Shown here: piece by piece, positions 3,588-54,058 of the stretch
How the letters are laid out: every line of letters begins with the position of its first letter
Numbering within the stretch: position 1 is the first letter of the stretch
DNA from: a virus
Reading direction: 5' to 3' (one strand)
IMG/VR virus record: IMGVR_UViG_3300045988_144476
DNA: 64,000 bases
Made by a program: the position numbers and the translations under genes
The notes under the pieces: generated by a model
Told to the model about the DNA's origin: nothing
The model's database searches: none
The model's input: only the letters and a program-made list of their open reading frames with translations

Positions 3588-3601
3588 AATGTTTTAATCA
3601 A
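3588..3601 (+). repeat. intergenic motif copy AATGTTTTAATCAA
   Basis: Exact variant between a stop codon and the next RBS. Confidence 0.9.
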
Positions 3602-3617
3602 TGAAAGGAGATAAAAT

Positions 3618-3848
3618 ATGAAAGGCAAAATCATTCTTGGACTCACAGCATTCACATTACTTGCCGGAATCATCGGCACGATTGACATTAACACTTACAA
3701 CGGAATTCATTCCGTTACCGGTTATGCAGCGAACAATAAAATCATTGCTGACAATGGAAATACTTACTCTGCTTCGAATCTCGAAGGTAAAGTAAAAGTA
3801 ACTTTAGATAATAACGGAAGCGTTATTGAAATCACATCACAGAATTAG
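3618..3848 (+). CDS. small secreted or membrane-anchored protein (76 aa)
   Basis: N-terminal transmembrane/signal segment; RBS aaggag. Confidence 0.6.
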   Translation: MKGKIILGLTAFTLLAGIIGTIDINTYNGIHSVTGYAANNKIIADNGNTYSASNLEGKVKVTLDNNGSVIEITSQN

Positions 3849-3862
3849 AGAGGGAAATAACT

Positions 3863-4159
3863 ATGACAATCGATCCAAAAGAAATCAAAGAAAGAAAAGC
3901 AATTGATAAAAAGGTTGCAGAAGTTGAACCATTTTTTCCACTTGTTGAAAAGGAAGATGATGTAGCAGTTATTCATATGAAACATGCAATTGCAAACCTG
4001 TACTATAATTTGTTAAAAGAAATCTTTCCTCATACAGTAGCAATGTATGAAGATGAAATCATTACCACAGTAGGTCACAATGGAATGCATTATCTATATC
4101 TCACAGGCAAAATTGATTACTGTGGTTGTCCAAATGGTCACAGATTATTCATTATCTAA
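3863..4159 (+). CDS. hypothetical protein (98 aa)
   Basis: RBS gagaggg upstream. Confidence 0.65.
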   Translation: MTIDPKEIKERKAIDKKVAEVEPFFPLVEKEDDVAVIHMKHAIANLYYNLLKEIFPHTVAMYEDEIITTVGHNGMHYLYLTGKIDYCGCPNGHRLFII

Positions 4160-4175
4160 GGAAGGAGCAAAGCAA

Positions 4176-4481
4176 ATGGTATCAAATGAACTACAAATCA
4201 AAAACCTTAATAAGGACATCAACGGAATGTTACATCTTCTTGCTGAACTCAAGGCAAATCCAGAAACAGAGAAATCATTCTTCACAAGAGAAAAGTGTGA
4301 GACAGAGCTTGCTAAAGCTTATCACAGGAAGCTTGAACTTATGTATCCCAAGGCAGAAACTTTATACATGTCCTGTATAAAAGAAGCTACATCTGCCAAA
4401 GGAATCGAATTAATGGTTAAGTACAATCTCATTGAATCTTGTGCAGTGGCAGAAGATGGAGAGAAACTATATGCATTATAG
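4176..4481 (+). CDS. hypothetical protein (101 aa)
   Basis: The internal ATG at 4176 is preceded by aaggag. The longer track ORF from 4080 overlaps the previous gene. Confidence 0.6.
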   Translation: MVSNELQIKNLNKDINGMLHLLAELKANPETEKSFFTREKCETELAKAYHRKLELMYPKAETLYMSCIKEATSAKGIELMVKYNLIESCAVAEDGEKLYAL

Positions 4482-4498
4482 GGAAAGGAGTATGGACT

Positions 4499-4657
4499 AT
4501 GAAACTGTGGGAACGCAAAGCAAGATCAATTATGAAAGGATTTTTGTTTAGCGAGACAAAAATTAATTCTATTATTAATTACGCAAACGAAGATCCAAAA
4601 GCAAACAATGAGTTGAAATTATATAAAGCAACTCACAAGGCAAGACAATGTTTATAA
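4499..4657 (+). CDS. hypothetical protein (52 aa)
   Basis: The ATG at 4499 is preceded by aaaggag. The track start at 4439 lies inside the previous gene. Confidence 0.45.
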   Translation: MKLWERKARSIMKGFLFSETKINSIINYANEDPKANNELKLYKATHKARQCL

Positions 4658-4737
4658 TCATTACAATAGATATATAAACAATTATACAACTGAATATGGA
4701 AAATAAAATAAATAATTAAAGAAAGAGGTATGATATT

Positions 4738-5796
4738 ATGTTAAGTATTAAAAATGTAAACGAGGAACTTGTAAACGGAGTTGTATCTGGAAATACAGTA
4801 ATCAATACAGATAGATTCGGGTATAAAATGGCATACGACACAGTAATGGCGAATTATAAAGAAATAGAAGGGAAAAAGTTTGTATCAATTCCATTGGACC
4901 TTCTGGAAATTGACGAAAGCTATCAGAGATTATTCTGTATCAATATGTCAAAGATAGATGATCTTGTGAAGAATTTTAACATGAATAAATGTGATCCAAT
5001 TCTTGTCGCTCCACATCCAGAAACATCTACATTTGCAGTAATCGATGGAACTCATAGAGTATTAGCATTTGAAATTATGAACAAGGGAAGCATTTGTGCA
5101 ACAATTGCCGAGGGACTTTCTGATAATCCAGAAGAAAGAAGTAAAGAAGAAGCTGAGATATTCTGCGGACAGGGAATTAACGTTGACCGTATGGCCCCAA
5201 CTCATAAACATAGAGCTTATGTAAAGATGGGTATAAAGAAATATGTAATTCTAGATGAATGTATGAAGGGAAGAAAACTCCTCCTTAATGTTCATGAATT
5301 AAAGAATCTTGACAAAGAAAAACAAGACGAATTAATTTCAGATGGATGGAGAGTGCTTTCTGGATATACAGCATTACTTGCTGCTGCTGCTCATTCAAAA
5401 GGTAAAGAAATGGTAACAACAATTTTTGATATTATTGAAAAATCAGGATGGCATTCAGCAACCAATGGATATGGAACTAATATAATCCGTCCAGTATCAG
5501 CAATCCTTAATATGCATGATTTTGATCCAGCAGTAACACAGGCAATTATTAATATCTTTAGCACAATGGAACCAGATCTGTTCATGTCCAAAGCACATGC
5601 AGCTTATCCAGGACGCAAGGAAAAAGAAAGACTTACAATGTGGCTTGAAAAAGCAGTAGCAAAGAAACTTGGAGTAGAACCAATCTATACTGGTGGAGAT
5701 ATGAGAAAGGTAGCTTCGAAATACAATGGAGCTAAAAGAAATGCTTCAGCATCTAACAAAACAACTCCATTCCCGGAAACAGGAACAGAAAAATAA
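4738..5796 (+). CDS. ParB N-terminal (ParB/Srx) domain protein, nuclease- or partition-like
   Basis: Motifs IDESYQR and VIDGTHRV are typical of the ParB/sulfiredoxin fold; RBS aagagg. Confidence 0.75.
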   Translation: MLSIKNVNEELVNGVVSGNTVINTDRFGYKMAYDTVMANYKEIEGKKFVSIPLDLLEIDESYQRLFCINMSKIDDLVKNFNMNKCDPILVAPHPETSTFAVIDGTHRVLAFEIMNKGSICATIAEGLSDNPEERSKEEAEIFCGQGINVDRMAPTHKHRAYVKMGIKKYVILDECMKGRKLLLNVHELKNLDKEKQDELISDGWRVLSGYTALLAAAAHSKGKEMVTTIFDIIEKSGWHSATNGYGTNIIRPVSAILNMHDFDPAVTQAIINIFSTMEPDLFMSKAHAAYPGRKEKERLTMWLEKAVAKKLGVEPIYTGGDMRKVASKYNGAKRNASASNKTTPFPETGTEK

Positions 5797-5799
5797 AAT

Positions 5800-5813
5800 A
5801 ATGATTTAATCAA
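5800..5813 (+). repeat. intergenic motif copy AATGATTTAATCAA
   Basis: Exact copy directly after the stop codon of the ParB-like gene. Confidence 0.9.
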
Positions 5814-5830
5814 AATTATAATAAAAATAC

Positions 5831-5859
5831 TTGATTTTTAAATAAGCAAGTGTTATATT
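5831..5859 (+). promoter_or_regulatory. sigma70-like promoter
   Basis: TTGATT, 17-nt spacer, TATATT, with a TGn extended -10. It is bracketed by two motif copies. Confidence 0.55.
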
Positions 5860-5872
5860 ATGATTATAAACT

Positions 5873-5886
5873 AATGTTTTAATCAA
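5873..5886 (+). repeat. intergenic motif copy AATGTTTTAATCAA
   Basis: Exact variant 14 nt downstream of the predicted -10. Confidence 0.9.
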
Positions 5887-6024
5887 CAGAAATAATAAGG
5901 TAAATACATCTATAAAGATGTTATTTATATAGCAACAAGCATTTACTATTAACCAAAGGCAAATCAGTTTTTGACTTGCTACCAAAATCTGATAAACCTA
6001 AACCCTCAACCCTTACAAATACAT

Positions 6025-6100
6025 CCTGTATCATGATCCACTTGAACGGTATAACCTCAAGTCGAAGGTACGTTTTTCTAAATATGGAAATTGATACAGG
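6025..6100 (+). ncRNA. 76-nt structured element
   Basis: A 9-bp closing stem cctgtatca/tgatacagg encloses the hairpin acttga/tcaagt. No ORF is present. Confidence 0.3.
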
Positions 6101-6234
6101 GTGTCATATAGTTATATAATTCAGACCTATATATAAGCGTGACAATATATGGAAGTCGTTTACCATTCTGGCGGTGTGAAACCTAGAACCGCCAACTCCT
6201 TCCAAATATGGATTTGAATTATGTAACTATAAAT

Positions 6235-6248
6235 AATGTTTTAATGAA
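6235..6248 (+). repeat. intergenic motif copy, degenerate (AATGTTTTAATGAA)
   Basis: One mismatch; sits just before an RBS. Confidence 0.7.
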
Positions 6249-6261
6249 AAGGGGAAAAGTT

Positions 6262-6342
6262 ATGAACGAAAAAAAGAAAAGGAAAGTCATCTCTTGGGAT
6301 GAGATTAAAGAAAAATTCAAAAGGGAAAGGAAAGAGCAATGA
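6262..6342 (+). CDS. possible 26-aa basic peptide
   Basis: RBS aagggg; ATGA overlap with the next gene. Below the ORF-track length cutoff. Confidence 0.3.
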   Translation: MNEKKKRKVISWDEIKEKFKRERKEQ

Positions 6343-9626: not shown

Positions 9627-9640
9627 AGTGAATTAATCAA
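9627..9640 (+). repeat. intergenic motif copy, variant (AGTGAATTAATCAA)
   Basis: Sits directly after a stop codon. Confidence 0.7.
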
Positions 9641-12545: not shown

Positions 12546-12559
12546 AATGATTTAATCAA
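12546..12559 (+). repeat. intergenic motif copy AATGATTTAATCAA
   Basis: Exact copy immediately after a stop codon. Confidence 0.9.
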
Positions 12560-24165: not shown

Positions 24166-24179
24166 AATGTTTTAATCAA
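24166..24179 (+). repeat. intergenic motif copy AATGTTTTAATCAA
   Basis: Exact variant after a stop codon. Confidence 0.9.
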
Positions 24180-27466: not shown

Positions 27467-28135
27467 ATGATGGAAAGAGAAGTAATAGTTTCAATTAAAG
27501 ATTGTGAGAAAATTACAGGATTACATTTTACATTAAATCATCAGGGTAAGATGAAAGGTATGCAGAGCTTATCAACTAGCTGCACATGTAATGAACATTG
27601 TAAAAGCAGATCAAAAAATACATCAACGGTATGCTCTCATTGTTATGCTCAGAGACAAATGAAAATATATAAAAATCTTGAAAAGTGTTTGATCAAGAAT
27701 ACGAAGATTCTTACAGAACAGGTTATCTCAAAAGAAAATTTGCCAATTATTAATGCGTTATATTTTAGACTTGAAGCATTTGGAGATTTAAATAATACAA
27801 CACAAGTAATTAATTATTTTAATTTATGTAAAAAGAATCCGGATGTCAAATTTGGATTATGGAGTAAAAATTTATGGTTGATTGAAGCTGCAATTAATGA
27901 TGGAAATTCCAAACCCAAAAACTTGCAGATCATTTATAGTATTCCTTTTCTAAATGATCGAAATGATAATATTTTTATTTTATATCCTTTTGTTGATAAG
28001 ATTTTTACAGTATTTGAAAAAAATTTTATTAAGAAAAATGATATAGAAATTAATTGTGGGGCTAAGAGCTGCTTATGTTGTGGAAAATGTTATAAGAAAA
28101 ACAAAGTAAAGTATATAAACGAGCGTCTTAAATAA
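27467..28135 (+). CDS. Cys-rich (metal-binding?) hypothetical protein (222 aa)
   Basis: Cys clusters STSCTCNEHC, VCSHCY and CLCCGKC; RBS aaaggag. Confidence 0.65.
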   Translation: MMEREVIVSIKDCEKITGLHFTLNHQGKMKGMQSLSTSCTCNEHCKSRSKNTSTVCSHCYAQRQMKIYKNLEKCLIKNTKILTEQVISKENLPIINALYFRLEAFGDLNNTTQVINYFNLCKKNPDVKFGLWSKNLWLIEAAINDGNSKPKNLQIIYSIPFLNDRNDNIFILYPFVDKIFTVFEKNFIKKNDIEINCGAKSCLCCGKCYKKNKVKYINERLK

Positions 28136-28147
28136 TGATTTAATCAA
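28134..28147 (+). repeat. intergenic motif copy AATGATTTAATCAA
   Basis: Exact copy overlapping a stop codon. Confidence 0.9.
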
Positions 28148-28184
28148 ATACATTGTATTGCAATCAGAAAGGATGTATTGTATA

Positions 28185-28754
28185 ATGAAAACAGCAAAAG
28201 GATATAAATTATTTAGAATATTGAAATCACAGCCAGGTAAATTATTTCCACTTTATGTTTATGCAACAGAAGAAATCCCTATTGGAGAATGGCTTAAAGC
28301 TAAAGAAGGACAAAAGACAGAAAATGGAAAGGTTAAAAGTAAACTTGGACCATTAAGATTTAGACCTGGGTTTCATATTAATGATATAGCTCCATATGTT
28401 TCTCATATTGGAAAGAAGGTAAATGGAAAGATTTGCTTTATGAGGCCGGATACAGTATGGGCTGAAGTTGAATATTGTATTGATCATGATTATTGTGATG
28501 AGGCAAAACAAAATGGTTATTGGAATGATATATTTTATCCGGTAAGAGCTGATCTTGATTATATTCCTATGAATGGATTTTATCGGTATAAAACAAATCC
28601 TACAATGACTGGAGAATGGATTATTGCCGGTGAGATGAAAGTATTGAGGATTTTGAGTGATATAGAAGTGAAAGAGATTTGTGATGAAGTTGGATCTGCT
28701 TATCTTCCAAGAGAACATGAAATTGATTTAAGAGAATATGGTTTTGCTGCGTAA
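28185..28754 (+). CDS. hypothetical protein (189 aa)
   Basis: The ATG at 28185 follows aaagga. The track TTG start at 28158 is less likely. Confidence 0.6.
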   Translation: MKTAKGYKLFRILKSQPGKLFPLYVYATEEIPIGEWLKAKEGQKTENGKVKSKLGPLRFRPGFHINDIAPYVSHIGKKVNGKICFMRPDTVWAEVEYCIDHDYCDEAKQNGYWNDIFYPVRADLDYIPMNGFYRYKTNPTMTGEWIIAGEMKVLRILSDIEVKEICDEVGSAYLPREHEIDLREYGFAA

Positions 28755-30159: not shown

Positions 30160-31143
30160 ATGAGTTTTGTCAAAAAGAAGATCTGGTATACATGTGAAGA
30201 AGATCATAAATCTTTTCCTATTACGGAAGATTCTTTGCTACGATATAAAATAAATACACCGAAGGATATTTCGAAAGAAGGAAAAATTCTTATTGAAAAT
30301 TATCTTGGTGGAGTACATACAAGGTGGATATGTAGACCTTTCAATCCAGAAACTGATAAGAAGCCTGAACCCAATTATTATGTCCCGTTAAATCGTACAA
30401 TATCAAATAGAATCAAGGCAAAAATAGATCAGATGACTGAAGAAGAAAGGCAAAAAAATAATTGTTTTGCATGTTGTACAGAAGGTGAAGCAGCAGATGA
30501 TTTTCTAGAATATGTTAAAGAACAAGAAGAGTACTTTGCTAAAGAAAAATATATGTCATGTTATACTCCTCGTTCGACTTATGATAAAAAAGATTACAAT
30601 TTAGAAGAAAGGATATATGCCTGTGCTCTTGGAGTAAGAGAGTCTTGTGATAGAAATCATGTAACTTTACCTATGTGTGGCACACCGGCATTTAATGAAC
30701 TTGAAGAAATAATCAAAGATTACGATCCAAGATATCTTCATCCTAAGACAGATGATGATAGGTATAGCAAACTCTATAGAGATGCAAAGAAAGAAGCAAT
30801 AGCGAAAGGCAAAGATCCACAGAAAATTGATGTCATTCAGGAATATCAGAAAGATCGGAAACCGCAGACATCATTATCACCGGAAATGATTAGCAGGTTT
30901 GATAGAATGAGTGATTCTACATTAGCAATGTGGTGTAATTTCAGTAAGAACTGGGCTTGGGTAGTACCATGTTTATTCTTGTGCTTGTTCGTTAATAAGG
31001 GACTTATATCTGCAATTGTACTTATTGTATTAATGATTGCTGGCGAAGTTTATTCTTCAATGGTAAATGAATATGTCTCTGTGATTATTCCATGGTATAA
31101 GAAATCAGGACAGATGATGGAAAAGAGGATATTGAAAAAATGA
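30160..31143 (+). CDS. hypothetical protein with a C-terminal TM region (327 aa)
   Basis: RBS gaggagg; hydrophobic C-terminus. Confidence 0.65.
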   Translation: MSFVKKKIWYTCEEDHKSFPITEDSLLRYKINTPKDISKEGKILIENYLGGVHTRWICRPFNPETDKKPEPNYYVPLNRTISNRIKAKIDQMTEEERQKNNCFACCTEGEAADDFLEYVKEQEEYFAKEKYMSCYTPRSTYDKKDYNLEERIYACALGVRESCDRNHVTLPMCGTPAFNELEEIIKDYDPRYLHPKTDDDRYSKLYRDAKKEAIAKGKDPQKIDVIQEYQKDRKPQTSLSPEMISRFDRMSDSTLAMWCNFSKNWAWVVPCLFLCLFVNKGLISAIVLIVLMIAGEVYSSMVNEYVSVIIPWYKKSGQMMEKRILKK

Positions 31144-32120
31144 ATGGAAGATTAGAACATGAATTACAGACAAATGAACGTACAAAAAAATTATTAAAAG
31201 AATTGCCTGATTATGTTACATCATATTATATGCATATTCAATCTTCAAAAAGTGCTAATACTTGTTATACATATGTTAATACAGTAAAAAGATTTATGGA
31301 ATATATTGGAAATATGAATATTAATAATGTAACAGAAGATACTGTGCAAAAGTTCTTAGAATCTATTAAGTATATAAACAATAATGGAAAACTGCATAGA
31401 TCTTCAGTATCATATACAAAATTATCATGCAGTTCGCTTAGTTCATTTTTCTTATTTCTATATCGAAAGGGAATTATAGATAATAATCCAATGGAATTTA
31501 TTGAAATGCCAATAAGAAAGGATTCTGTAAAAAGAGTTTTTTTCTCAATGGATGATCTTCGTAGCCTTTTATTTACTGTAACAGATTCAAATAGAGGTAC
31601 ATATACATGGTTATTAAGAGATTATACAATTTTATATTTATTTATGGTTACAGGAATGAGAAAGACTGCATTAAGTGAAATAAACGTAGAAGATCTTGAT
31701 TTAAATAACAATATATTAAAAATTATTGACAAGCGAGATAAAGAACATATTTATATTCTTCCGGACGATGTAAAGAAAGTTCTTGCTAAATGGTTAGTAT
31801 ATAGACGTAGATATATGAATGAACAGAATTTTGAAATAGATGCATTATTTATTTCAAAAAAGCATAATAGATTAAGTCCTAATGCAATATATAAAACTGT
31901 AAGATATTATACTGAAAAAGCTTTTGGTAAAGCATACAGCCCTCATAAATTAAGAGCGGCTTTTGTCTCACTATATTATGAAGAAACACATGATATTGAA
32001 GCAGTAAGAGACGCTGTAGGACATGCTGATACACAAACAACCAGTCGATATATTGTTAAAAATAATAATCCAAGAAAAGAGGCAGCCAAGTTTATTTCAA
32101 ATGGTATACGAGGGAAATAA
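31140..32120 (+). CDS. tyrosine recombinase / integrase
   Basis: Catalytic signature in order: GMRKTAL (Arg), HKLRAAF (HxxR) and GHADTQTTSRY (His and Tyr). Confidence 0.85.
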   Translation: MNGRLEHELQTNERTKKLLKELPDYVTSYYMHIQSSKSANTCYTYVNTVKRFMEYIGNMNINNVTEDTVQKFLESIKYINNNGKLHRSSVSYTKLSCSSLSSFFLFLYRKGIIDNNPMEFIEMPIRKDSVKRVFFSMDDLRSLLFTVTDSNRGTYTWLLRDYTILYLFMVTGMRKTALSEINVEDLDLNNNILKIIDKRDKEHIYILPDDVKKVLAKWLVYRRRYMNEQNFEIDALFISKKHNRLSPNAIYKTVRYYTEKAFGKAYSPHKLRAAFVSLYYEETHDIEAVRDAVGHADTQTTSRYIVKNNNPRKEAAKFISNGIRGK

Positions 32121-32134: not shown

Positions 32135-32148
32135 GATGAATTAATCAA
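32135..32148 (+). repeat. intergenic motif copy, variant (GATGAATTAATCAA)
   Basis: Lies between the integrase stop codon and a promoter. Confidence 0.75.
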
Positions 32149-32161: not shown

Positions 32162-32190
32162 TTGACTTTTAAAAATATTACGTATATAAT
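32162..32190 (+). promoter_or_regulatory. sigma70-like promoter
   Basis: TTGACT, 17-nt spacer, TATAAT. Confidence 0.65.
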
Positions 32191-32222: not shown

Positions 32223-33479
32223 ATGTTAGTAGAAAGGTCAATAGTTGAGAAATATTTAAGAAGAGAATTTAATAAGCTCATTGTTTCTAATGTTAATCCT
32301 GTGGTTTTAATTAAATATGCTGAAAATAAATATAATATGAGAGGTGAAGATTTTTCTGATTATTATTCTGGAAGACTCTCTTTAGATCATGCAACAGAAT
32401 TTGAGCTTTATGTTATGGTTGATTCTCTACAAACGTATATGTCATCTATGGATAAACTTCCAAAATGGTTTACGAAAAGAGAAATAGATAACTTTAGTGT
32501 TACAAAATTCTCAAAAGAAAAACTTATTGAGTTTCCAATAACATTTGATATGTGCCAAATTGAAGATGATCAATGGGTTGGAAGAATTAATACGGATATG
32601 ATCAATAAATTGAGAATGGCTGCATTAATTAACTATAATGTTGATACTCAGAGAACTATGCAAAAAGTAATTAGGCATGGAAACACATTTTATCAAATTA
32701 AAGTTAATAAAAATGCAGTTAATGCTATCAAAGATGATTTTAAAGAAGGAACATATATTCCAAATACAATCACATTAAATATTTCACCTTCTGATGAAAA
32801 GGCAGATTTTTATTATGATAATAAAAATCATGAATTAGTAATCAATGATATTAGTGCTTTTGATATTATTGACGGATACCATAGATATTTGGCAATAGCC
32901 CAAGAGAAACTTGAGAATTCTGATTTTGATTATCCAATGGAATTACGAATTACAAATTTTGATATTGATAAAGCACAGAGATTTATTTTCCAGGAAGATC
33001 AGAAGACTAAGATGAAAAAAACGGATTCTGATTCTTATAATAATGCTTCGCCTCAAAACACAGTAGTTAATAGGCTCAATACAAATAGTGATTCAAATAT
33101 CAGAGGAATGATATCCCGTAATGATGGACTGATTAACTTTGGTGTTTTAGCGGATGCTATTAAAGCTATATATATTAGCAATTGTAATAAAAAAGATGAA
33201 AGAATCAAGGTAATCAATGTAACTAAAGAGCTTATTGAAGATTTTAATTTATTAACAGAAACAGATTTGTCATTTTTAAAAAGAAAATATACAAATGCTG
33301 ATATTTGTATAATACTTACATTATTTAAATATTATTCTGGCAAAGATAAATCTGATATGGTTGATACAATAAAATATGTATTAGATCATGTAGACGATTT
33401 TAACAGAACAATGTTTTATGGAAGAATGACAGTAAGGTCGCAAAATATAATTATAAAAAAGGCTATGGAAAGGAGTTAA
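32223..33479 (+). CDS. DGQHR/DndB-like (ParB superfamily) protein
   Basis: IIDGYHRYLAI (DGYHR at 32871-32885), followed by QRFIFQEDQ. The start was set to the ATG at 32223, 11 nt after aagagg. Confidence 0.65.
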   Translation: MLVERSIVEKYLRREFNKLIVSNVNPVVLIKYAENKYNMRGEDFSDYYSGRLSLDHATEFELYVMVDSLQTYMSSMDKLPKWFTKREIDNFSVTKFSKEKLIEFPITFDMCQIEDDQWVGRINTDMINKLRMAALINYNVDTQRTMQKVIRHGNTFYQIKVNKNAVNAIKDDFKEGTYIPNTITLNISPSDEKADFYYDNKNHELVINDISAFDIIDGYHRYLAIAQEKLENSDFDYPMELRITNFDIDKAQRFIFQEDQKTKMKKTDSDSYNNASPQNTVVNRLNTNSDSNIRGMISRNDGLINFGVLADAIKAIYISNCNKKDERIKVINVTKELIEDFNLLTETDLSFLKRKYTNADICIILTLFKYYSGKDKSDMVDTIKYVLDHVDDFNRTMFYGRMTVRSQNIIIKKAMERS

Positions 33480-33482: not shown

Positions 33483-34421
33483 ATGTATAACGAACAGCAA
33501 AAGTCAAGATATTTAAAATTCCTTGAAAAAAATGAATCCGGTTCTGTTAATATGTATGAGTCGTGGCTATTTGTCAAAACTGAAAATTTTGAAATCAAGC
33601 TAAATAAGGATGTATATGATTTTACATTTGAAGAAATAATTTATATGTATAAAATGTTAAATTTTAGAAATATTAATACACTTTCTACTATAAATGTAAT
33701 GCTAAATCAATATACTAAATGGGCTATATCAGAAGGTTTAGTAAAGATTAATCAGAATGTTCCAGGATTAATGACCAGATATAATCTTGAAGAATGCATA
33801 AATAAAGCATTATTACAACTTAAAATTCTTTCACGCAAAGACATACTTGATATTGTTAATGAACTACAAAATCCAAGAGATCAGTTTATGATTTTAGGTG
33901 TATTTGAGTTCGGAAGAGGTCCTAATTTTTGCGATATAGCATTAACGGGATTAGATTCTATTGATTATAAAGATCAGACAATGAAGCTTTATAGTGGACG
34001 CATAGTAAAGGTGTCAGATAAACTAATAAATTATGCATATTCTGCTTCTGAAGCAGATGAGTATTTTAAGGAGGTAAACGGATGTTTAAGACACTATACT
34101 CTTTATGACAATGGAACCATAATTAAAAGTATATCAGATACTAATGATACAGAAAGGTTTTCTACCAATGCTTACAGAAGTGTTGCATATAATTTACGTG
34201 ATGTAGATCCGAATTTATCTATAAAGAATATAATTGAATCTGGAAAAATTCAGTTTATTAAAGACGATATGGAAAGATTAGGCATTGATGATTTAGAAGA
34301 GTATTTTTCTTCTCCTAAAAGTGCGGATAGAACAGAACGGATAGCAAGAATAGAAAATCAGTTTATGTGCTCTAAAATTATTGTCAAGAGATTTATAAAA
34401 ACATATGGTGATTGTTTTTGA
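33483..34421 (+). CDS. recombinase-like protein without a visible catalytic tetrad (312 aa)
   Basis: The layout resembles an integrase (SAM-like N-terminus plus a core), but I cannot find HxxR or a terminal Tyr motif. RBS aaaggag. Confidence 0.55.
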   Translation: MYNEQQKSRYLKFLEKNESGSVNMYESWLFVKTENFEIKLNKDVYDFTFEEIIYMYKMLNFRNINTLSTINVMLNQYTKWAISEGLVKINQNVPGLMTRYNLEECINKALLQLKILSRKDILDIVNELQNPRDQFMILGVFEFGRGPNFCDIALTGLDSIDYKDQTMKLYSGRIVKVSDKLINYAYSASEADEYFKEVNGCLRHYTLYDNGTIIKSISDTNDTERFSTNAYRSVAYNLRDVDPNLSIKNIIESGKIQFIKDDMERLGIDDLEEYFSSPKSADRTERIARIENQFMCSKIIVKRFIKTYGDCF

Positions 34422-34431
34422 TCACCATATG
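34402..34431 (+). terminator. perfect 11-bp hairpin overlapping a stop codon (terminator-like)
   Basis: Stem catatggtgat/atcaccatatg with loop tgtttttg; only a short T-run follows. Confidence 0.5.
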
Positions 34432-34446
34432 TTTAAAAAGATATAT

Positions 34447-34460
34447 AATGATTTAATCAA
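34447..34460 (+). repeat. intergenic motif copy AATGATTTAATCAA
   Basis: Exact copy just before an RBS. Confidence 0.9.
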
Positions 34461-37700: not shown

Positions 37701-37952
37701 GAAAACATTTCTACTTCAACATCTTTAGAAGGAAAAAAATTCTGTATTACAGGGAAATTACAGAAATTTGCAAATCGTGATGCTCTTGTAGCTGATATTG
37801 AAGCAAAAGGAGGTAAAGTTGTGTCCGGAGTAACTAAGGCAACAGATTATCTTATTACAAATGATAAGACAAGTGGATCCAGTAAGAATAAAAAAGCTGC
37901 TGAATTAAGTATTCCTATTATTAGCGAAGAAGAATATATTAATTTATCATAA
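34785..37952 (+). CDS. ligA: NAD-dependent DNA ligase (LigA) interrupted by an intein
   Basis: Adenylation motif KMDG, with TRGN..VGE after the insert. Also an OB fold, a Zn finger CPYCG...C..C, HhH repeats, and a C-terminal BRCT-like GKKFCITG. The exteins total about 665 aa. Confidence 0.9.
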   Translation: MNKTIRIKELVRMLNMYCDAYYNRNESIISDKEFDKLYDELLDLEKETGIILSNSPTQHVGYEVKSELQKVKHSHLMMSLDKTKDVNELIKFIGNHECVLMNKMDGCFIGDTRITMANYKTKKIKDIKIGDEVLSYDLNGKICTSKVKNIYNNGLKTFDEWVDLQLYDYLLKSNKYHVTCTKNHKIYTPNGYKEAGNLNVGDYVYVHNKKISQDQSDILLGILLGDGWFVNRSKLKEKSLKNKLEIHYSKTKSKHYDDLIYQLQKKFITFNSTISYRTSGYSSKENNMVNLNLGVIDVPDYFCNSKNHLRCGFTFTEEICKHLSPLALAMFYLDDGSKIQCQNDGFDVYNVKNTCLLHTNRHKKESVKILSDYLKSIGVSNNIRFEKCLKNYDFGDGYIIYIDAEGTEVFFDMIAKYIPKEFRKIKLGLKDKWQNCECFNFEDDDSNYSLIETQITNIKNGFRRSPSQSHITRKTAYDLEIENTHCYFANGFAVHNCTMLLTYENGELIQAETRGNATVGELVTHNAKVFENIPLHIDYSGYLEVEGEAIITYNDFDNINDTIKDPDKKYKNPRNLAAGSVRQLNSEIAKGRHLKFILWKVPTGMNHINSFKERLENAREVGFDIVPFVTVDSAEDINGAIDGLKNVAKNLSYPIDGMVITYEDIDYGLSLGVTDKFPRHSFAFKFYDEEYETTLQDVEWTIGKSGQLTPTAVFEPVEIDGTEVSRASLHNVSIFKAFDMHVGDTIMVYKANQIIPQIKENLSKGSNTGTKLSIPQKCPYCGEPTIVVKENDSEVLMCLNAQCQGKLLGELCAFVGKKAHDIKGLSEATLSLMIHTGMVHSPIDLYHLEDKRKELTYFPKMGSKKVDNILKAIEESRNTTLEKFIVGLNIPLIGSRAAKDIAKHEEIRTKEAKLVKPINTFIVDAAENYDFTHIEGLGIERNNSIHNYFKENYDYVCAMASLFKFPEMNLETENISTSTSLEGKKFCITGKLQKFANRDALVADIEAKGGKVVSGVTKATDYLITNDKTSGSSKNKKAAELSIPIISEEEYINLS
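35103..36272 (+). mobile_element. 390-aa intein with a LAGLIDADG homing-endonuclease domain
   Basis: Starts with Cys (CFIGDTRI) immediately after KMDG. Block B is TKNH. Two LAGLIDADG motifs are present: LLGILLGDGWF and LAMFYLDDGS. It ends ...FAVHN, followed by the +1 Cys. Confidence 0.85.
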
Positions 37953-37964
37953 TGTTTTAATCAA
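37951..37964 (+). repeat. intergenic motif copy AATGTTTTAATCAA
   Basis: Exact variant overlapping the ligA stop codon. Confidence 0.9.
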
Positions 37965-37971: not shown

Positions 37972-38000
37972 TTGACATACGAAGAAATGTGTGATATAGT
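37972..38000 (+). promoter_or_regulatory. sigma70-like promoter
   Basis: TTGACA, 17-nt spacer, TATAGT, with a TGn extended -10. It is bracketed by two motif copies. Confidence 0.65.
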
Positions 38001-38019: not shown

Positions 38020-38033
38020 AAAGTTTTAATCAA
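38020..38033 (+). repeat. intergenic motif copy, variant (AAAGTTTTAATCAA)
   Basis: Lies downstream of the promoter and before an RBS. Confidence 0.7.
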
Positions 38034-38046: not shown

Positions 38047-38766
38047 TTGAAAAAGAAGAAAAAGCAATATTACATTGCAAATCATAAAGATACCAAGTTT
38101 TTATGTTCAACAAATATAGATATATCTTCAATTACACATGAATTTGACAAAGCGATGATTTTTCAGAATGCAACTAGGCCAGGTCAAATCATAAGGATGC
38201 TACCTAAAGCAGTGCAAAAATATGGTCCTTTTGAAATTCATGTTGTTAAAGATATTTCGCAGCCTGATCTATTAACAGCAGAAGATATAACTAAAATTTT
38301 AAGTGAAAATAAAACTAGTGTTGATTTGCAAGAGAAAACAGAAGTAAAAGTAGAATGTAAAAAAGAATTTGATTTTCAAGAAATAAAAGATGAGTTGAAT
38401 TCTTTTGCACCAAAACTCAAATCTATGCTTGATCAGCAGGAAATGTTGAAACTTGAATTATCTAATATTGATCTTGAAATATCAGATATTCTTCATTATA
38501 TAGAATTTCATAGATTTTCAGCATGTGAAGGATATAAACTTGCTAAAATGATACAGGTTGCTAGTGATAAAAGGAGAGAAATAAAAAAACAGCTGGAAGT
38601 AATAAATATATTTAAAACGAGTACCTGCACATCAATATCATCAGGACATCTTATAAATAAAATTGATAATGTAGATGATAAAATATATAGACCAAGAATT
38701 CTTAATAATTTATTTGAGAATGGAAAGAATAAAGAAAGAGAAAATATTAAAGTTAATTATAATTAA
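38047..38766 (+). CDS. hypothetical coiled-coil protein (239 aa), TTG start
   Basis: The ORF follows aaagga. The start codon is uncertain. Confidence 0.5.
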   Translation: MKKKKKQYYIANHKDTKFLCSTNIDISSITHEFDKAMIFQNATRPGQIIRMLPKAVQKYGPFEIHVVKDISQPDLLTAEDITKILSENKTSVDLQEKTEVKVECKKEFDFQEIKDELNSFAPKLKSMLDQQEMLKLELSNIDLEISDILHYIEFHRFSACEGYKLAKMIQVASDKRREIKKQLEVINIFKTSTCTSISSGHLINKIDNVDDKIYRPRILNNLFENGKNKERENIKVNYN

Positions 38767-38778
38767 TGATTTAATCAA
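38765..38778 (+). repeat. intergenic motif copy AATGATTTAATCAA
   Basis: Exact copy overlapping a stop codon. Confidence 0.9.
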
Positions 38779-40880: not shown

Positions 40881-40894
40881 AATGATTTAATCAA
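40881..40894 (+). repeat. intergenic motif copy AATGATTTAATCAA
   Basis: Exact copy before an RBS. Confidence 0.9.
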
Positions 40895-46166: not shown

Positions 46167-46167
46167 T

Positions 46168-47470: not shown

Positions 47471-47484
47471 AATGTTTTAATCAA
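47471..47484 (+). repeat. intergenic motif copy AATGTTTTAATCAA
   Basis: Exact variant after a stop codon and before a promoter. Confidence 0.9.
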
Positions 47485-47499: not shown

Positions 47500-47528
47500 T
47501 TGACATTTGAAATGAAGTGTGGTATAAT
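47500..47528 (+). promoter_or_regulatory. sigma70-like promoter
   Basis: TTGACA, 17-nt spacer, TATAAT, with a TGn extended -10. Confidence 0.7.
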
Positions 47529-47592: not shown

Positions 47593-47606
47593 AATGATTT
47601 AATCAA
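47593..47606 (+). repeat. intergenic motif copy AATGATTTAATCAA
   Basis: Exact copy between the leader hairpin and the tRNA. Confidence 0.9.
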
Positions 47607-48882: not shown

Positions 48883-49524
48883 ATGACAACAGAAAAAATG
48901 ACAGTACATAAGGCATTGGCTGAGATTAAGGTTATGGATAATCGAATTAATTCTGCAATTTATAGTGGTGTTTATTGTTTAGCAAATAAACATTCCAATG
49001 AAAAAGTAAAGGGAATTGCAGTTGAAGATTATAAAAAGGTAATGCAGGGTTATTATGACAAAACTAATGATTTAATTAAACGTAATGAAGCTATTAAAAA
49101 GGCAGTAGTTCTTTCTAATGCTATAACAAAGGTAAAGATTGGAGAGAATGAATACACTGTAGCTGAAGCAATTTGGATGAAGAATCATGGCATTGATAAT
49201 AAAGATGAGCTTCTTGTAAAATTACAGCAGCAGTACAACAAAGCTCAGGCAGAGATTCTTAAGAATAACGGAGAAGAACTTGATAAGAGAGCTGAACAGT
49301 ATGTAATTGGTATTTATGGTTCAAAAGAAGGAAAGGCTGACACAGAAGCTTTTGAAAAGACTAAAAAGGAATTCATTAAAGCAAATCAGTATGAACTTCT
49401 GGATCCGATTGGAATTCTTAAAGTGATTGAAGATCTTGAAAAAGAGATTGATACATTCAAAGCAGAAGTAGATGCAGCACTTTCTACAAGTAATGCGATC
49501 ACTGAGATCGAAGTAACTTATTAA
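48883..49524 (+). CDS. hypothetical coiled-coil protein (213 aa)
   Basis: RBS aaaggag upstream. Confidence 0.65.
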   Translation: MTTEKMTVHKALAEIKVMDNRINSAIYSGVYCLANKHSNEKVKGIAVEDYKKVMQGYYDKTNDLIKRNEAIKKAVVLSNAITKVKIGENEYTVAEAIWMKNHGIDNKDELLVKLQQQYNKAQAEILKNNGEELDKRAEQYVIGIYGSKEGKADTEAFEKTKKEFIKANQYELLDPIGILKVIEDLEKEIDTFKAEVDAALSTSNAITEIEVTY

Positions 49525-51157: not shown

Positions 51158-51532
51158 ATGATAGCAAATGTATTAGCAGAATTAAGAACTGGTGATATTG
51201 TTCTTTCTACAAAGGGCAGTTATGGAATGGTTCTTAGAGGAACTCCAAGTGGAGATATTGTTAAATGGTATGTAAATAGTAAAGGAAAGTGTATTGATAA
51301 ATTCAGAAGCTTGAATATGATCAATTCTGATTTTACTTTTAGATTTGATGAAGAAAACAGAATTGTAAAAGTTTGGAGAACAAAAGATAAACATTATCTT
51401 GGTGATAAAGCAGTTACAAAATATACTGTTGCAGATAGTTTTGAACTTATCTATGAAGATAAAGTAAAAGAAGTAACAATGGATGAAGTTGAAGAAAAGT
51501 TTGGCTGTAAAGTCAAAATTAAAAATAGTTAA
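51158..51532 (+). CDS. hypothetical protein (124 aa)
   Basis: RBS aaaggag upstream. Confidence 0.6.
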   Translation: MIANVLAELRTGDIVLSTKGSYGMVLRGTPSGDIVKWYVNSKGKCIDKFRSLNMINSDFTFRFDEENRIVKVWRTKDKHYLGDKAVTKYTVADSFELIYEDKVKEVTMDEVEEKFGCKVKIKNS

Positions 51533-51536
51533 AACT

Positions 51537-51550
51537 AATGAATTAATCAA
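51537..51550 (+). repeat. intergenic motif copy, variant (AATGAATTAATCAA)
   Basis: Lies after a stop codon. Confidence 0.8.
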
Positions 51551-51652
51551 ATACATGAGAAAAGAGAAATAATTATTGAAGCACTGTAACATAGCAGTGC
51601 AAAGTTGTCAGAGTGACAAACATTATTCTGCTTCGGAAAGTGAGGTGGAATA

Positions 51653-52570
51653 ATGGAACATAAGAAATTTATGGATATTCAAAGATTGAAAGAAGGATTT
51701 GCAGATGGATTTCGTCCTGGAGATGAGATCGTAGTGCAGGAAAAGTTTGATGGGAGCTGTGCTTCTTGTAGATATGATGTAGAAACAGGTAAGTTAGTAG
51801 CTTTTTCAAGAAGACAAATCCTTGATCCTCTCAGTAATACACTAAGTGGTTTCTATAACTATATACAGTCTTTGAATGCAGATGAATTTAAGGATTATCC
51901 AGACTATGTAGTATTTGGAGAATGGTCTGGAGCAAGAAATGCAATTATTTATTATCCTGAAAATACTAAAAAATGGTATGTGTTCGATATTTATGATGTA
52001 AGTAAACAAGGATATTTACCACAGTCTGAAGTAAAGAGATTTGCTGAGGAACATGGATTGGATTACATCAATACATATTATATTGGACCATTTATCAGTT
52101 GGGAACATGTCATGAGCTTTATGGGTACTTCAGCATATGGAGATACGCAGGAAGGTATTGTTGTAAAGAATCAGACAAGACTTAATGATCCTAATTCAAG
52201 ATTACCATTTGTAGTAAAAATCGTTGGCGAAAAGTTTCATGAGATTGCAAAAACAAATCACGTAAGAAAAGTTGCTGATCCTCAAAAATTACAGGAAAGA
52301 GCAGTTGCACAAGAATTAACCGAGTCTATTGTTACAAGACGAAGAGTTGAAAAAGAATTATATAAGATGCGTGATGAAGGCATTATTCCAGCTGACTGGT
52401 GTGAGCAAGACATGAAGACAGTCGCAAGAGAATTGCCTAGTAGAATATATCATGATTGTGTAAAAGAAGAACCGGAAACAGTAACCGAAATCGGACAATA
52501 TTTTGGAAAGTTTTGTTCTTCAACTGCAATGCGATATGCACGTAACATCATTCTGGGAGATCCGGCCTGA
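51653..52570 (+). CDS. ATP-dependent RNA ligase-family nucleotidyltransferase (Rnl-like)
   Basis: Motif I QEKFDGS, motif III VFGEWSG, motif IV EGIVVKN, motif V VKIVGEKF. Confidence 0.75.
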   Translation: MEHKKFMDIQRLKEGFADGFRPGDEIVVQEKFDGSCASCRYDVETGKLVAFSRRQILDPLSNTLSGFYNYIQSLNADEFKDYPDYVVFGEWSGARNAIIYYPENTKKWYVFDIYDVSKQGYLPQSEVKRFAEEHGLDYINTYYIGPFISWEHVMSFMGTSAYGDTQEGIVVKNQTRLNDPNSRLPFVVKIVGEKFHEIAKTNHVRKVADPQKLQERAVAQELTESIVTRRRVEKELYKMRDEGIIPADWCEQDMKTVARELPSRIYHDCVKEEPETVTEIGQYFGKFCSSTAMRYARNIILGDPA

Positions 52571-52606
52571 TTATTGAGATATAAGAAGAAAGGAGGACTT
52601 GAATGA

Positions 52607-52822
52607 GTGGGACAATTAAAGAGTATAGAATGCAGCAGTTGCCATAACATGTATATGTATGATGATTCAGAAACATTTTTTGATGATCATGGATATGGTT
52701 ATTCTACAAAATTAGTGAAATGCAAATGCTGCGGAAAGATAAATATTGTTCGGTATTATCAAGATCGAGCAATGAAATTAAATAATGACAGTAGATTTTA
52801 TGATTACAGGAGAAATAAATAA
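52607..52822 (+). CDS. zinc-ribbon protein (71 aa), GTG start
   Basis: CSSCHN...CKCCGK pattern; aggagg lies 10 nt upstream. Confidence 0.5.
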   Translation: MGQLKSIECSSCHNMYMYDDSETFFDDHGYGYSTKLVKCKCCGKINIVRYYQDRAMKLNNDSRFYDYRRNK

Positions 52823-54039
52823 TGGCAAAAGTAAAAGAAAAAAAAGCTTTAGAGAAGAAAAATTGGACACAGAGTTTTATTCTTGTTGGTAAAGCGTGTG
52901 TTAATGATTATACATTTAAAATTGATGAAAGATCCAATAAGAGTGATTGGATTTACAATATGATCAATCTTGATGTTGATTGTGGTGAGAAATACGGAAA
53001 AGTTCGTTGTGAATTAATGGGTGGTTATGGACTTGAAAGAGATAATTGTCCAATTTGGGTTCATGGTAAAGACGAAAATGGACGTGATGATTTTAAAAAT
53101 ACTTATCAGATTGCATTTGAAGATAGATTTAACGAAGAGTATTTAGAAGATATTGGTAGTCTCTGTTTCTTATATGCTGGCATTGAAAGAGATGTCAAAG
53201 AAGAAGTGGCAGAATATAAATTTCTTCATGCTTATGATTATATTAAATATTTATCTGAACATCTCGAAAATGGAATGGAGATTAGAGTAACTGGTCAGCT
53301 GCGTTATTCAGTATATAATGGCAATGTACAGGTCAAAAAAGAGATTTCCAAAATCTATTTTAAGAGAGAAAAAGATGATTATGGTGCAACATTTAAACAG
53401 ACAATTCTTATTAATAAGGATTCTGTAGGAAAAGCAGATAAAGATAAATGTATTTTCCCTGTTACTGGATTTGTACTTGAGAAGTTTAAAGAATATAACG
53501 GAAATGATCTTACTGAAGGTGGAGCAGTCAAAGGTGGAAAATTTGTTCCTTTGAGAAAAATGTTTGAGTATGAATTCTCTCCGGAGGTTGAACCTGAAGC
53601 ACTTAAGAGAGCACTTAATCTTATGTTTAAGGTTAAAAAGGGTTATAACCAGGTTACATATGAAGGTGTATTTGTTGAAGGTGGGGCAGTTATTAAGACT
53701 ACTTATGATGATCTTACCGATGAGATTAAAGAGCTTGTTGATGCAAACATCTATACATTAGAAGAAGCTCTTGCTACTTGTACTGAAAACACCGGGAAAG
53801 AAAGACGAATGATTCTGAGAAAACCGATTATTGAATTGGTGGGCGAAGAAGGATCTAAAGTTGCTCAGGTACGTAAAATTGAAAATATTTATTCTGACGA
53901 AGATTTTATGCTGGATTATCTGATTGCTCATGAAGAGGAAGAATATGAGGAAGATCCGGAGATTGAAGCTACTGAGAGAACAGAAGAGGCTGCAGATGAA
54001 GTAGCAGATCTGTCATGGATGGAAAATCTTGGTGTCTAA
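52822..54039 (+). CDS. hypothetical protein with an acidic C-terminal tail, possibly an ssDNA-binding protein
   Basis: 405 aa located in the replication module. The tail EEEYEEDPEIEATERTEEAADEVADLSW is SSB-like. The function is inferred only. Confidence 0.6.
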   Translation: MAKVKEKKALEKKNWTQSFILVGKACVNDYTFKIDERSNKSDWIYNMINLDVDCGEKYGKVRCELMGGYGLERDNCPIWVHGKDENGRDDFKNTYQIAFEDRFNEEYLEDIGSLCFLYAGIERDVKEEVAEYKFLHAYDYIKYLSEHLENGMEIRVTGQLRYSVYNGNVQVKKEISKIYFKREKDDYGATFKQTILINKDSVGKADKDKCIFPVTGFVLEKFKEYNGNDLTEGGAVKGGKFVPLRKMFEYEFSPEVEPEALKRALNLMFKVKKGYNQVTYEGVFVEGGAVIKTTYDDLTDEIKELVDANIYTLEEALATCTENTGKERRMILRKPIIELVGEEGSKVAQVRKIENIYSDEDFMLDYLIAHEEEEYEEDPEIEATERTEEAADEVADLSWMENLGV

Positions 54040-54044
54040 TAGAT

Positions 54045-54058
54045 AATTCTTTAATCAA
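54045..54058 (+). repeat. intergenic motif copy, variant (AATTCTTTAATCAA)
   Basis: Lies after a stop codon. Confidence 0.65.

Follow-up and report, generated by a model that had tools for sequence, protein, structure and literature searches.

A transcription-oriented intergenic box in an SPβ-like phage of gut Lachnospiraceae, probably the recognition site of its MrpR/SroF-type repressor

Introduction

What reads a short AT-rich word that is repeated between the genes of a phage, and what does it do there? We address this question for the word AATGWTTTAATCAA, which recurs in a 64,000-nucleotide stretch of viral DNA, IMG/VR record IMGVR_UViG_3300045988_144476 (the whole stretch is called the window below). 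The window comes from a temperate, SPβ-like phage of Lachnospiraceae with a genome of ~163.5 kb. Our answer, to which we assign a probability of roughly 0.8, is that the word serves as the box for the master repressor that the phage itself encodes, a protein of the SroF/MrpR type, and is the equivalent of the SPβ repeated element (SPBRE) and of the SroF box of phage phi3T. In the original prediction for this DNA the word had been taken for the site of a dimeric DNA-binding regulator, with a phage promoter, an RNA processing site and a multi-frame stop module as alternatives.

Results

The box is over-represented, intergenic and asymmetric

The word AATGWTTTAATCAA is present in 12 exact copies in the 64-kb window, all on the + strand, and in none of 100 dinucleotide-preserving shuffles. 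Seven copies are of the A-variant (5800, 12546, 28134, 34447, 38765, 40881 and 47593) and five of the T-variant (3588, 5873, 24166, 37951 and 47471); the window-type (W) box has also been written AAATAATGWTTTAATCAAA and TAAATAATGATTTAATCAAAAG. Allowing up to two mismatches gives 30 matches against 10.9 expected, and this search retrieves every variant listed before (6235, 9627, 32135, 34758, 38020, 51537 and 54045), so that all the copies and coordinates of the original prediction, exact, variant and within coding sequences, were recovered. The range given for the motif, 3588–54058, proved too narrow: the copies within it are real, but the motif also occurs beyond it and outside the window. 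The copies within coding sequences at 14982, 20707 and 54914 do encode DDLIK or DELIK, as had been claimed, and their translations are joined by one more:

49066..49079, + strand: copy AATGATTTAATTAA within a coding sequence, 20.3 bits, encoding NDLIK; function uncertain

An information-content profile of 15 copies extends the conserved block beyond 14 nt to ~19–20 nt, (A)AAT-AATGWTTTAATCAA-A, and reveals no partner element at a fixed distance upstream. With a 20-nt position weight matrix and a threshold of at least 12 bits, the window holds 21 matches on the + strand and none on the − strand, where a Markov model predicts 0.4. The enrichment over a shuffled model on which the earlier claim depended is borne out. 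Eighteen of the 21 matches are intergenic and three lie in coding sequences; as intergenic DNA makes up 7,369 nt, or 11.5% of the window, the density of the motif there is ~46-fold higher than in coding sequences.

The symmetry of the word fares less well. The perfect 5-1-5 inverted repeat that had been described is kept in the A-variant only, and is broken in five of the 12 exact copies, the T-variants, as well as in the AATT variants. Nor can the motif form a hairpin, since the stem would have 5 bp and the loop 1 nt. A sequence-specific DNA-binding regulator therefore remains right in kind, whereas the reasoning from dyad to dimer is not supported: the sites are functionally asymmetric, and the family of regulators to which we assign the phage protein below has been shown by experiment to bind as monomers (bioRxiv 10.1101/2025.11.27.690993, PMC10516654).

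The box follows the direction of transcription

The boxes take two forms of placement. Where the intergenic region is long, the first nucleotide of the motif lies −2 to +8 nt from the stop codon of the preceding gene; in the second form it ends 13–17 nt ahead of a start codon, with the AAGGAG of the ribosome-binding site (RBS) beginning 0–3 nt after it. Overlap with or adjacency to stop codons and closeness to the RBS had both been proposed and are both seen, but the proposed spacing of 3–15 nt before the RBS is wrong for the many copies that lie 0–3 nt from it. The strongest intergenic sigma-A-like promoters each start 5–25 nt 3' of a box: those at 5831, 28158, 32162, 37972 and 47500, another in the flank downstream of the window and a last one on the − strand of the upstream flank. 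In three to four cases a box also separates the −10 from the RBS or transfer RNA (tRNA), and the three pairs of boxes said to bracket a promoter (5800/5873, 37951/38020 and 47471/47593) are real. For ~13 boxes, all at stop/RBS junctions, no promoter could be detected. The individual boxes of the window, with the promoters and the terminator-like hairpin next to them, are as follows (L025 is one of the related contigs described below).

3588..3601, + strand: box, 24.4 bits; upstream stop 1 nt before, next ATG 16 nt on, no promoter near (junction class)
5800..5813, + strand: box, 27.2 bits; stop of the ParB-like gene 3 nt before, −35 of the 5831–5859 promoter 17 nt downstream
5831..5859, + strand: sigma-A-like promoter TTGATT-17-TATATT (TG), with boxes 5800 and 5873 on either side
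5873..5886, + strand: box, 25.7 bits; 13 nt 3' of the −10 of the 5831 promoter (early transcribed region)
6235..6248, + strand: box variant AATGTTTTAATGAA, 23.8 bits; AAGGGG and then ATG directly after
9627..9640, + strand: box variant AGTGAATTAATCAA, 18.9 bits; stop codon 2 nt before
12546..12559, + strand: box, 25.7 bits; stop/RBS junction
24166..24179, + strand: box, 26.3 bits; stop 8 nt before, at the 5' edge of a 538-nt intergenic region
28134..28147, + strand: box, 28.0 bits; overlaps a stop codon, −35 of the 28158–28186 promoter 10 nt downstream
28158..28186, + strand: sigma-A-like promoter TTGCAA-17-TATAAT
32135..32148, + strand: weaker box variant GATGAATTAATCAA, 13 bits; 13 nt 5' of the −35 of the yopQ/repressor operon promoter
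32162..32190, + strand: sigma-A-like promoter TTGACT-17-TATAAT, preceding the yopQ-like and repressor genes
34402..34434, + strand: hairpin with a T-run, resembling a terminator, where the repressor gene ends; the same is found downstream of yopR in SPβ
34447..34460, + strand: box, 25.0 bits; the terminator-like hairpin on one side, the RBS of a small acidic open reading frame (ORF) on the other
37951..37964, + strand: box, 24.0 bits; overlaps the ligase stop codon, −35 of the 37972–38000 promoter 7 nt downstream
37972..38000, + strand: sigma-A-like promoter TTGACA-17-TATAGT (TG), conserved in L025 with the flanking boxes swapped
38020..38033, + strand: box variant AAAGTTTTAATCAA, 22.8 bits; 19 nt past the −10, RBS immediately next
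38765..38778, + strand: box, 26.2 bits; overlaps a stop codon and abuts the AAGGAG of the gene for a 690-aa protein
40881..40894, + strand: box, 28.0 bits; abuts AAGGAG, the sole W-type box retained in L025 (in a 92%-identical block)
47471..47484, + strand: box, 26.7 bits; stop 2 nt before, −35 of the 47500–47528 promoter 15 nt downstream
47500..47528, + strand: consensus sigma-A-like promoter TTGACA-17-TATAAT (TG), 12/12 consensus matches
47593..47606, + strand: box, 26.5 bits; 13 nt 5' of tRNA-Gln (47620–47694)
51537..51550, + strand: box variant AATGAATTAATCAA, 23.5 bits; stop 4 nt before, ahead of the RNA-ligase/replication block
54045..54058, + strand: weak variant AATTCTTTAATCAA, 10.7 bits; precedes the Sak4-like gene, of doubtful membership

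The flanks of the window show what sets the orientation. The next 10 kb downstream hold four more strong copies on the + strand, while the 10 kb upstream include a block of − strand genes with three copies on the − strand, one followed by a TTGACA-17-TATACT promoter, another right before the RBS of the first − strand gene and the third before the next gene; the layout of box, TTGACA promoter, box and RBS is in this way repeated on the − strand. A single + copy upstream of the window (L071 8245) lies in the divergent region. Over 82 kb of the source genome, window and flanks together, there are 25 sites of at least 17 bits, 22 on the + strand and three on the − strand. Their orientation agrees with that of local transcription in 25 of 25 cases, if L071 8245 is taken as ambiguous. 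The single orientation proposed earlier is accordingly correct within the window (21 against 0) but fails for the three copies of the upstream flank, where orientation again goes with transcription. Since the strand of the motif changes with that of the genes, it cannot be a signal that is bound to one strand of the DNA, for replication or packaging for instance, and the strict co-orientation with transcription means that the site is functionally asymmetric.

Two regions contain three boxes each. The divergent control region between the − and + gene blocks (L071 8111–9000, ~270–1160 nt upstream of window position 1) has three boxes, two on the − and one on the + strand, with an inverted pair around the TTGACA promoter, and a ~600-nt non-coding stretch that is richer in GC; it may be a lysis–lysogeny switch region or the source of a non-coding RNA. 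Window 4738–6339 comprises the ParB-like gene and, after it, a 542-nt intergenic region with three boxes and two sigma-70-like promoters (5831 and 6091), and may serve as a partition or regulatory hub.

A repressor homologue is encoded in the same order as in SPβ

The genes yopP (integrase), yopQ and yopR of SPβ, followed by a terminator, have counterparts in the same order in the window, ending with the hairpin at 34402:

31140..32120, + strand: YopP-like tyrosine recombinase, catalytic set R / HxxR / H / Y intact
32223..33479, + strand: YopQ homologue (E 2e-14 against SPβ YopQ), with a weak DndB/ParB-like signal
33483..34421, + strand: MrpR/SroF-like integrase-fold repressor of 312 aa, the proposed trans-acting factor

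The 312-aa protein matches Pfam family PF22822 (MrpR_N_CB) with E 1e-14. Against the PDB, phmmer finds 9rd5 (SroF-phi3T) with E 1.8e-10 and 8a0a/8bj6/8bjv (MrpR/YopR) with E ~1e-8, and BLASTP gives E 3e-11 for SPβ YopR and E 3e-14 for phi3T SroF. The protein and its homologues in related phages are without the HxxR box and His III (the second catalytic His), but in the YopP-like integrases next to them R, HxxR, H and Y are all present. The comparison is of moderate reliability, as it is drawn from alignments at 25–39% identity; the box-I Arg varies (R/K/S) among MrpR-like proteins.

MrpR (YopR) is the master repressor of SPβ, a monomer with a tyrosine-recombinase fold that has three of seven catalytic residues and no recombinase activity; chromatin affinity purification sequencing (ChAP-seq) gives ten peaks, all on the dispersed 15-bp SPBRE, an element noted before, and electrophoretic mobility shift assays (EMSA) and reporter fusions confirm binding and repression at that element (PMC10516654). 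In 9rd5, the structure of phi3T SroF with DNA, a single monomer surrounds a box of 26 bp that is AT-rich and asymmetric; all but two of these base pairs (24) are read, some of them by the shape of A-tracts; SPβ-like phages have multiple specific pairs of repressor and antirepressor (bioRxiv 10.1101/2025.11.27.690993).

We extracted the boxes of both phages for comparison. Those of SPβ have the core AATATGTATA and the extended form tAGACAAAtACAAAtAATATGTATAtA, and all ten intergenic boxes are co-oriented with the downstream gene, including the opposite-strand copy before yonP; at yopM, yopV and yonX the RBS is 1–6 nt away from the box, and at aimR the box precedes the −35 by 6 nt. The published phi3T box, read along transcription, contains …AGAATAAAAATAAAAT…, and the early region of that phage has 23 boxes among + strand genes and three on the − strand at the yonP/yonO-like block, so that 26/26 are co-oriented, several of them abutting an RBS or a −35. 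Co-orientation with transcription is a property found across the family, one that the available parts of these two papers do not state. MrpR and SroF are 29.5% identical and their boxes are unrelated, the same relation as we find among the lineages around the window.

The promoter of the yopQ/repressor operon has the weak box at 32135 ahead of it, much as an SPBRE stands before yopM in SPβ, which suggests that this box is an autoregulation site. Directly downstream of the repressor gene, with a box ahead of it, lies a small acidic ORF (34475–34756, 93 aa, isoelectric point (pI) 4.05). The equivalent ORFs of two relatives, L025 and L003, are also acidic (pI 4.2–4.5) and diverge between lineages. 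By position and composition, with no sequence similarity (E 0.33), the ORF may be an analogue of Sar, the DNA-mimic antirepressor of phi3T. The 394-aa protein at 25581–26765 is not AimR-like (E 0.05 against AimR).

Box and repressor change together in related phages

Using the conserved 690-aa protein we gathered 58 related viral contigs, and in 57 of these 58 loci the window motif has no matrix match on its own strand (four loci have a single reverse-strand match). Instead, the relatives carry their own strand-specific intergenic motif at orthologous junctions, with the flanking promoter hexamers conserved. The junction between the ligase and the next gene illustrates this: window and L025 align through the TTGACA-17-TATAGT promoter, but both boxes beside it are of the type of the respective lineage. 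Many sites replaced together in otherwise homologous genomes argue for a co-evolving recognition factor encoded by the phage. No dyad is common to the motifs of the related lineages.

Homologues of the 312-aa protein from 33 loci fall into five clusters at ≥90% identity, with 32–39% identity between clusters except for L024 against the L022 cluster (77%). Clusters and motifs are paired as listed here, together with the motif of a further relative.

Cluster 0: 27 loci (L003 group); motif T3 only, AAATTTAATTAWACA, 5–9 copies each, all on the + strand
Cluster 1: L021, L022 and L062; motif T22 (L022 group) only, ACTGTTATTAATAAATTT
Cluster 2: L025; motif T25, AAAATAATGTAAAATTTGAAA, plus one W-type box
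Cluster 3: L024; ACTGTAAAATATAAACTT, a near-variant of T22
Cluster 4: the window; motif W
L032: motif (T)ATAAATAAATT

The match between repressor cluster and motif type is one-to-one over the 33 loci, which represent only four to five independent lineages. The degree of divergence agrees as well, in that the L024 motif is a near-variant of that of L022 where the repressors are 77% identical. The lone W-type box of L025, the orthologue of 40881, lies within a 7.8-kb block that is 92% identical to the window (window 38457–46252, L025 9686–17460), while the flanks of this block are only 68–77% identical; the block appears to stem from a recent recombination, with the W-type box remaining as a mismatched 'orphan' in L025. 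Among the syntenic proteins of window and L025 the repressor is the most diverged, with 37% identity, compared with 43% for the YopP-like protein, 50% for the YopQ-like protein, 72% for the ligase and 87% for the 690-aa protein. Positions aligned to DNA-reading residues of SroF (22, 25, 26, 205, 206, 233, 234 and 238) differ between lineages, and four of them (205, 233, 234 and 238) differ even within the L022/L024 pair, but given the divergence of the alignment this variation is suggestive only.

Two other repeats were seen in the relatives. The L003 lineage carries, besides its main box, another repeated word, AAATTAAATTAACTTT, with copies at 4594, 6850, 9249 and 18069, three of which (4594, 9249 and 18069) are immediately upstream of the −35 of a sigma-70-like promoter; it could be an UP element or the site of a second regulator. 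The T7 epsilon-like word TTAACTTT within it was treated as a coincidence, since its position 5' of the −35 places it outside the transcript of that promoter. In the distant relative L045, positions 13352–13483 hold five tandem copies of GTTATCAAAAAAGATAA spaced 18–23 bp apart, with a sixth 68 bp upstream. This is a local tandem cluster like the iterons of replication origins and unrelated to the dispersed boxes.

Alternative explanations

The strongest competitor is that the boxes are bound by another factor of the phage, such as the YopQ-like protein (32223–33479), the YopP-like protein, the HTH_36 protein (9906–10730) or a product encoded outside the 82 kb. Linked genes are inseparable by covariation, the YopQ-like and YopP-like proteins are themselves strongly diverged between motif lineages (43–53% identity), and both the weak DndB match of the former and the presence of the HTH_36 protein offer candidates. 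We nevertheless consider this improbable: in SPβ and phi3T it is MrpR or SroF itself that binds the dispersed box, according to the ChAP-seq, EMSA and crystal structure in the reports cited above, and the window homologue of these proteins is the most diverged of the block, with predicted DNA-reading positions that vary with motif type.

Somewhat less probable still is that the motif is a phage-specific promoter, used by a phage sigma factor or a YonO-like RNA polymerase, from which middle transcription units would start just upstream of an RBS or tRNA. Its specificity would then diverge by lineage as in T7, T3 and SP6. Promoters of the T7 group are indeed ~20 bp long, intergenic, in one orientation, spaced one per few kb and variable between lineages, and the motif likewise occurs about once per 2.5–3 kb, always oriented with transcription and immediately 5' of RBSs and of a tRNA, in some cases after a hairpin (34447) and in a lineage-specific sequence; moreover, SPβ-like phages encode YonO, a homologue of which could lie outside the window. 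However, no RNA polymerase or sigma factor was found among the window proteins. The motif flanks host-type promoters on both sides, and an arrangement of box, sigma-A promoter and box would mean redundant triple promoters. At many sites the RBS follows after 0–3 nt and abuts the motif, which leaves almost no leader. The homologous boxes of SPβ and phi3T are repressor sites by experiment, the factor that covaries with the motif is a repressor homologue, and YonO serves late genes, which are without SPBRE. A host-type promoter fares no better: TTGACA-like hexamers 16–18 nt upstream of the −10-like hexamers in the motif are not enriched (8–20% of sites against a background of 16%). Lacking a −35 partner, the motif is not itself a sigma-A-type promoter, hidden or otherwise, and the −10-like alternative of the original prediction fails for this reason and because its start would fall on or within the RBS.

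Several related readings were rejected. The 690-aa protein was dismissed as a hidden RNA polymerase, as it has no DxDGD-type signature and no Pfam or PDB sequence match. As a class-I activator site the motif is unsuitable, its centre lying −49.5 to −59.5 from the predicted starts without helical phasing. The parS sites of the ParB-like protein (gene 4738–5796) would be palindromes grouped close to parAB, whereas the motif extends over >70 kb, is oriented with transcription and does not conserve its palindrome. An UP element could be a side effect of boxes upstream of a −35, but cannot explain the junction copies or the swapping between lineages.

A third possibility, which we regard as quite unlikely, is that the motif acts in messenger RNA (mRNA), as an endoribonuclease site, the site of a translational regulator or an AU-rich translational enhancer before the RBS. 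It is always on the transcribed strand, often abuts the RBS and in one case precedes a tRNA by 13 nt. But copies also occur upstream of promoters, and one, L071 8348 on the − strand, is in the divergent region with no upstream gene on that strand and should therefore not be transcribed; this copy and several others upstream of promoters count against the RNA processing site suggested earlier. Many copies follow stop codons with no RBS downstream (5800, 24166 and 47471), and the motif, as noted, cannot fold into a hairpin. The concerted, lineage-specific replacement argues against recognition by a conserved host ribosome or RNase, and the homologous boxes are DNA sites. A comparable case would be the start-associated sequences (SAS) of Cluster K mycobacteriophages, conserved 13-mers right before many start codons, in one orientation. 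They contain the RBS and are known only from gene starts, whereas many window copies follow stops or precede promoters with no start codon near.

Finally, a compositional or coding by-product, be it a chance repeat or the AT-rich multi-frame stop module proposed before (TAA-TGA in one frame and TAA in another, often with a real stop codon in the 5' flank), is effectively refuted by the shuffles, in which no copy is expected by chance, and by the comparative data, since the conserved 19–20 nt exceed stop codons, copies occur far from stops (5873, 38020 and 47593), the strand flips with the genes and the motif is replaced wholesale in relatives.

Other features of the phage

Nearly all genes of the window are on the + strand, and its GC content is ~31%. 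Its Pol III alpha protein is present on two independently assembled 163.5 kb contigs from human-gut metagenomes (ENA ERZ28572843 scaffold_24 and ERZ27229699 k119_150727). These two assemblies are circularly permuted, which together with the ParB-like hub raises the question of a plasmid prophage as against an integrated one. Relatives sit within chromosomal contigs of Ruminococcus sp. AM36-2AA (which carries L062), Konateibacter massiliensis and other Lachnospiraceae, and because they are integrated in Lachnospiraceae and Ruminococcus chromosomes the group is temperate. A megablast search with 8 kb of the window against phage GenBank records gave no match. The SPβ block yorG to yorL matches window 54089–62948, and the replication proteins of the window are a DnaB-like helicase, a primase, an exonuclease and Pol III alpha. 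Also encoded are a ParB-like protein, two tyrosine-recombinase-like proteins, a Sak4-like ATPase and a YorH-family protein (Pfam match).

Several other genes stand out. The NAD-dependent DNA ligase (34785–37952) is interrupted by an intein with a LAGLIDADG homing-endonuclease domain, and its length varies among relatives, which suggests that only some of them carry the intein. Within the early region, inside the block that is 92% identical to L025, lies the gene for a full-length P-type cation-transporting ATPase of 874 aa (41303–43927). Small early genes surround a reverse transcriptase (20959–22239; RVT_1, E 2e-23), and a pentapeptide-repeat protein (7462–8373; Pentapeptide_2, E 5e-23) is also encoded among early genes; pentapeptide-repeat proteins can be DNA mimics. 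The 690-aa protein (38793–40865, phrog_1735), which has no Pfam match and no PDB sequence match, is conserved very widely: 533 phage records contain it by tblastn, among them those of Bastille-like phages of Bacillus (58% identity) and of phages of Salmonella, Klebsiella and Caulobacter. Among the RNAs, an Rfam RAGATH-27 element (49554–49639) scores 89.6 bits, above its gathering score, in a tRNA-rich intergenic region. ARAGORN reports a tRNA at 50672–50749 (Rfam tRNA 45.6 bits) whose anticodon, agcg, seems to have four bases and to which no amino acid is assigned. Within the phage cluster of tRNAs (Gln, Leu and Met), it could be frameshift-suppressor-like or degenerate.

Discussion

The kind of system proposed here is already known from SPBRE with MrpR and from the SroF box, and the likeness extends to most of its parts. 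The candidate is homologous to these repressors, with an integrase fold, a CB domain and a degenerate catalytic set, and is encoded in the order yopP–yopQ–yopR; the boxes are AT-rich, asymmetric, dispersed in early intergenic regions and co-oriented, and they abut an RBS or lie just upstream or downstream of sigma-A promoters. One box heads the repressor operon and others head the replication block, and repressors that have diverged to ~30% identity go with unrelated boxes. What is new is the host clade, the specificities and the higher share of junction sites. Specifically, the host is from human-gut Lachnospiraceae rather than Bacillus, the density of boxes (~25 per 82 kb) exceeds the 10 of the whole SPβ genome and is similar to that of the phi3T early region, and a larger share of the boxes than in SPβ or phi3T is at promoter-less stop/RBS junctions. 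Within the window no arbitrium AimR is recognisable, and the sequence of the putative Sar analogue does not resemble that of its counterpart.

By analogy with SroF, one repressor monomer would clamp round each asymmetric AT-rich box of ~20 bp, and in the lysogen the bound boxes would keep the early and replication genes silent. Boxes 5–25 bp upstream of strong sigma-A-type early promoters, or just downstream of them, would be operators. The promoter-less boxes at stop/RBS junctions, which point with transcription, may instead be orientation-dependent roadblocks to read-through in the manner of stoperators. Close relatives with other repressor alleles and matching boxes would be heteroimmune.

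Several points weigh against this interpretation. Binding between repressor and box is experimental in SPβ and phi3T, and for the window phage both the binding of the box by the 33483–34421 protein and the operator and roadblock mechanism are argued by analogy. The box shares only the AAATAAT(A)TG half with SPBRE and nothing with the phi3T box, and neither AimR nor a Sar recognisable by sequence was detected within the window. About half of the strong boxes have no detectable promoter near. The roadblock function is an extrapolation, since the published SPβ sites are described as lying in 'promoter regions' (PMC10516654), and a box that lies 5–25 bp 5' of a −35 is not where a site for steric repression is classically found. 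The covariation rests on four to five independent lineages in which each repressor cluster is also a phage lineage, so that a neighbouring gene as diverged as those for the YopQ-like and YopP-like proteins could be the specificity factor. Lastly, the scan covered 82 of the ~163.5 kb of the source genome.

The closest functional parallel is with the stoperators of Cluster A mycobacteriophages (PMC9283540, PMC6550527), which are likewise asymmetric, lie in the short spaces between genes and have an orientation that correlates with transcription. As in the L5 gp71-type systems, there are >20 asymmetric, transcription-oriented sites in short intergenic spaces and at promoters; the stoperator repressor is also monomeric, and its site covaries with repressor and immunity group, much as box and repressor do here. 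The resemblance is one of function and not of membership. The fold of the stoperator repressor, a helix-turn-helix (HTH) with a 'stoperator' domain, is unrelated to the integrase fold of the window candidate; stoperators are GC-rich 13-mers, whereas the window boxes are AT-rich and ~20 nt long; and the block to elongation has been demonstrated for L5, while for the window phage it would follow by extension. Pfam scans of the window proteins, which included no search aimed at gp71-type repressors, gave no further repressor-like protein besides that with HTH_36. Only tentatively, and with more doubt than confidence, do we go one step further and propose that a monomeric, DNA-encircling repressor of the integrase fold acts as an orientation-dependent roadblock to elongation, in a stoperator system that evolved independently of the mycobacteriophage HTH repressors and operates genome-wide in large prophages of gut Lachnospiraceae. 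If this is true, the rapid co-replacement of a repressor allele and >25 boxes would create heteroimmune lineages.

On the reading of the motif as a repressor box, the MrpR/SroF–SPBRE system would be extended from SPβ-like phages of Bacillus to large temperate phages of human-gut Lachnospiraceae. At least five new pairs of repressor and box specificity would become available, and could be used to study how specificity changes in a monomer that reads ~24 bp. The co-orientation of the boxes and the many promoter-less junction sites make a block to elongation by SroF-type repressors testable. The boxes would also mark the boundaries of early transcription units, and immunity groups, in otherwise unannotated genomes of gut phages.

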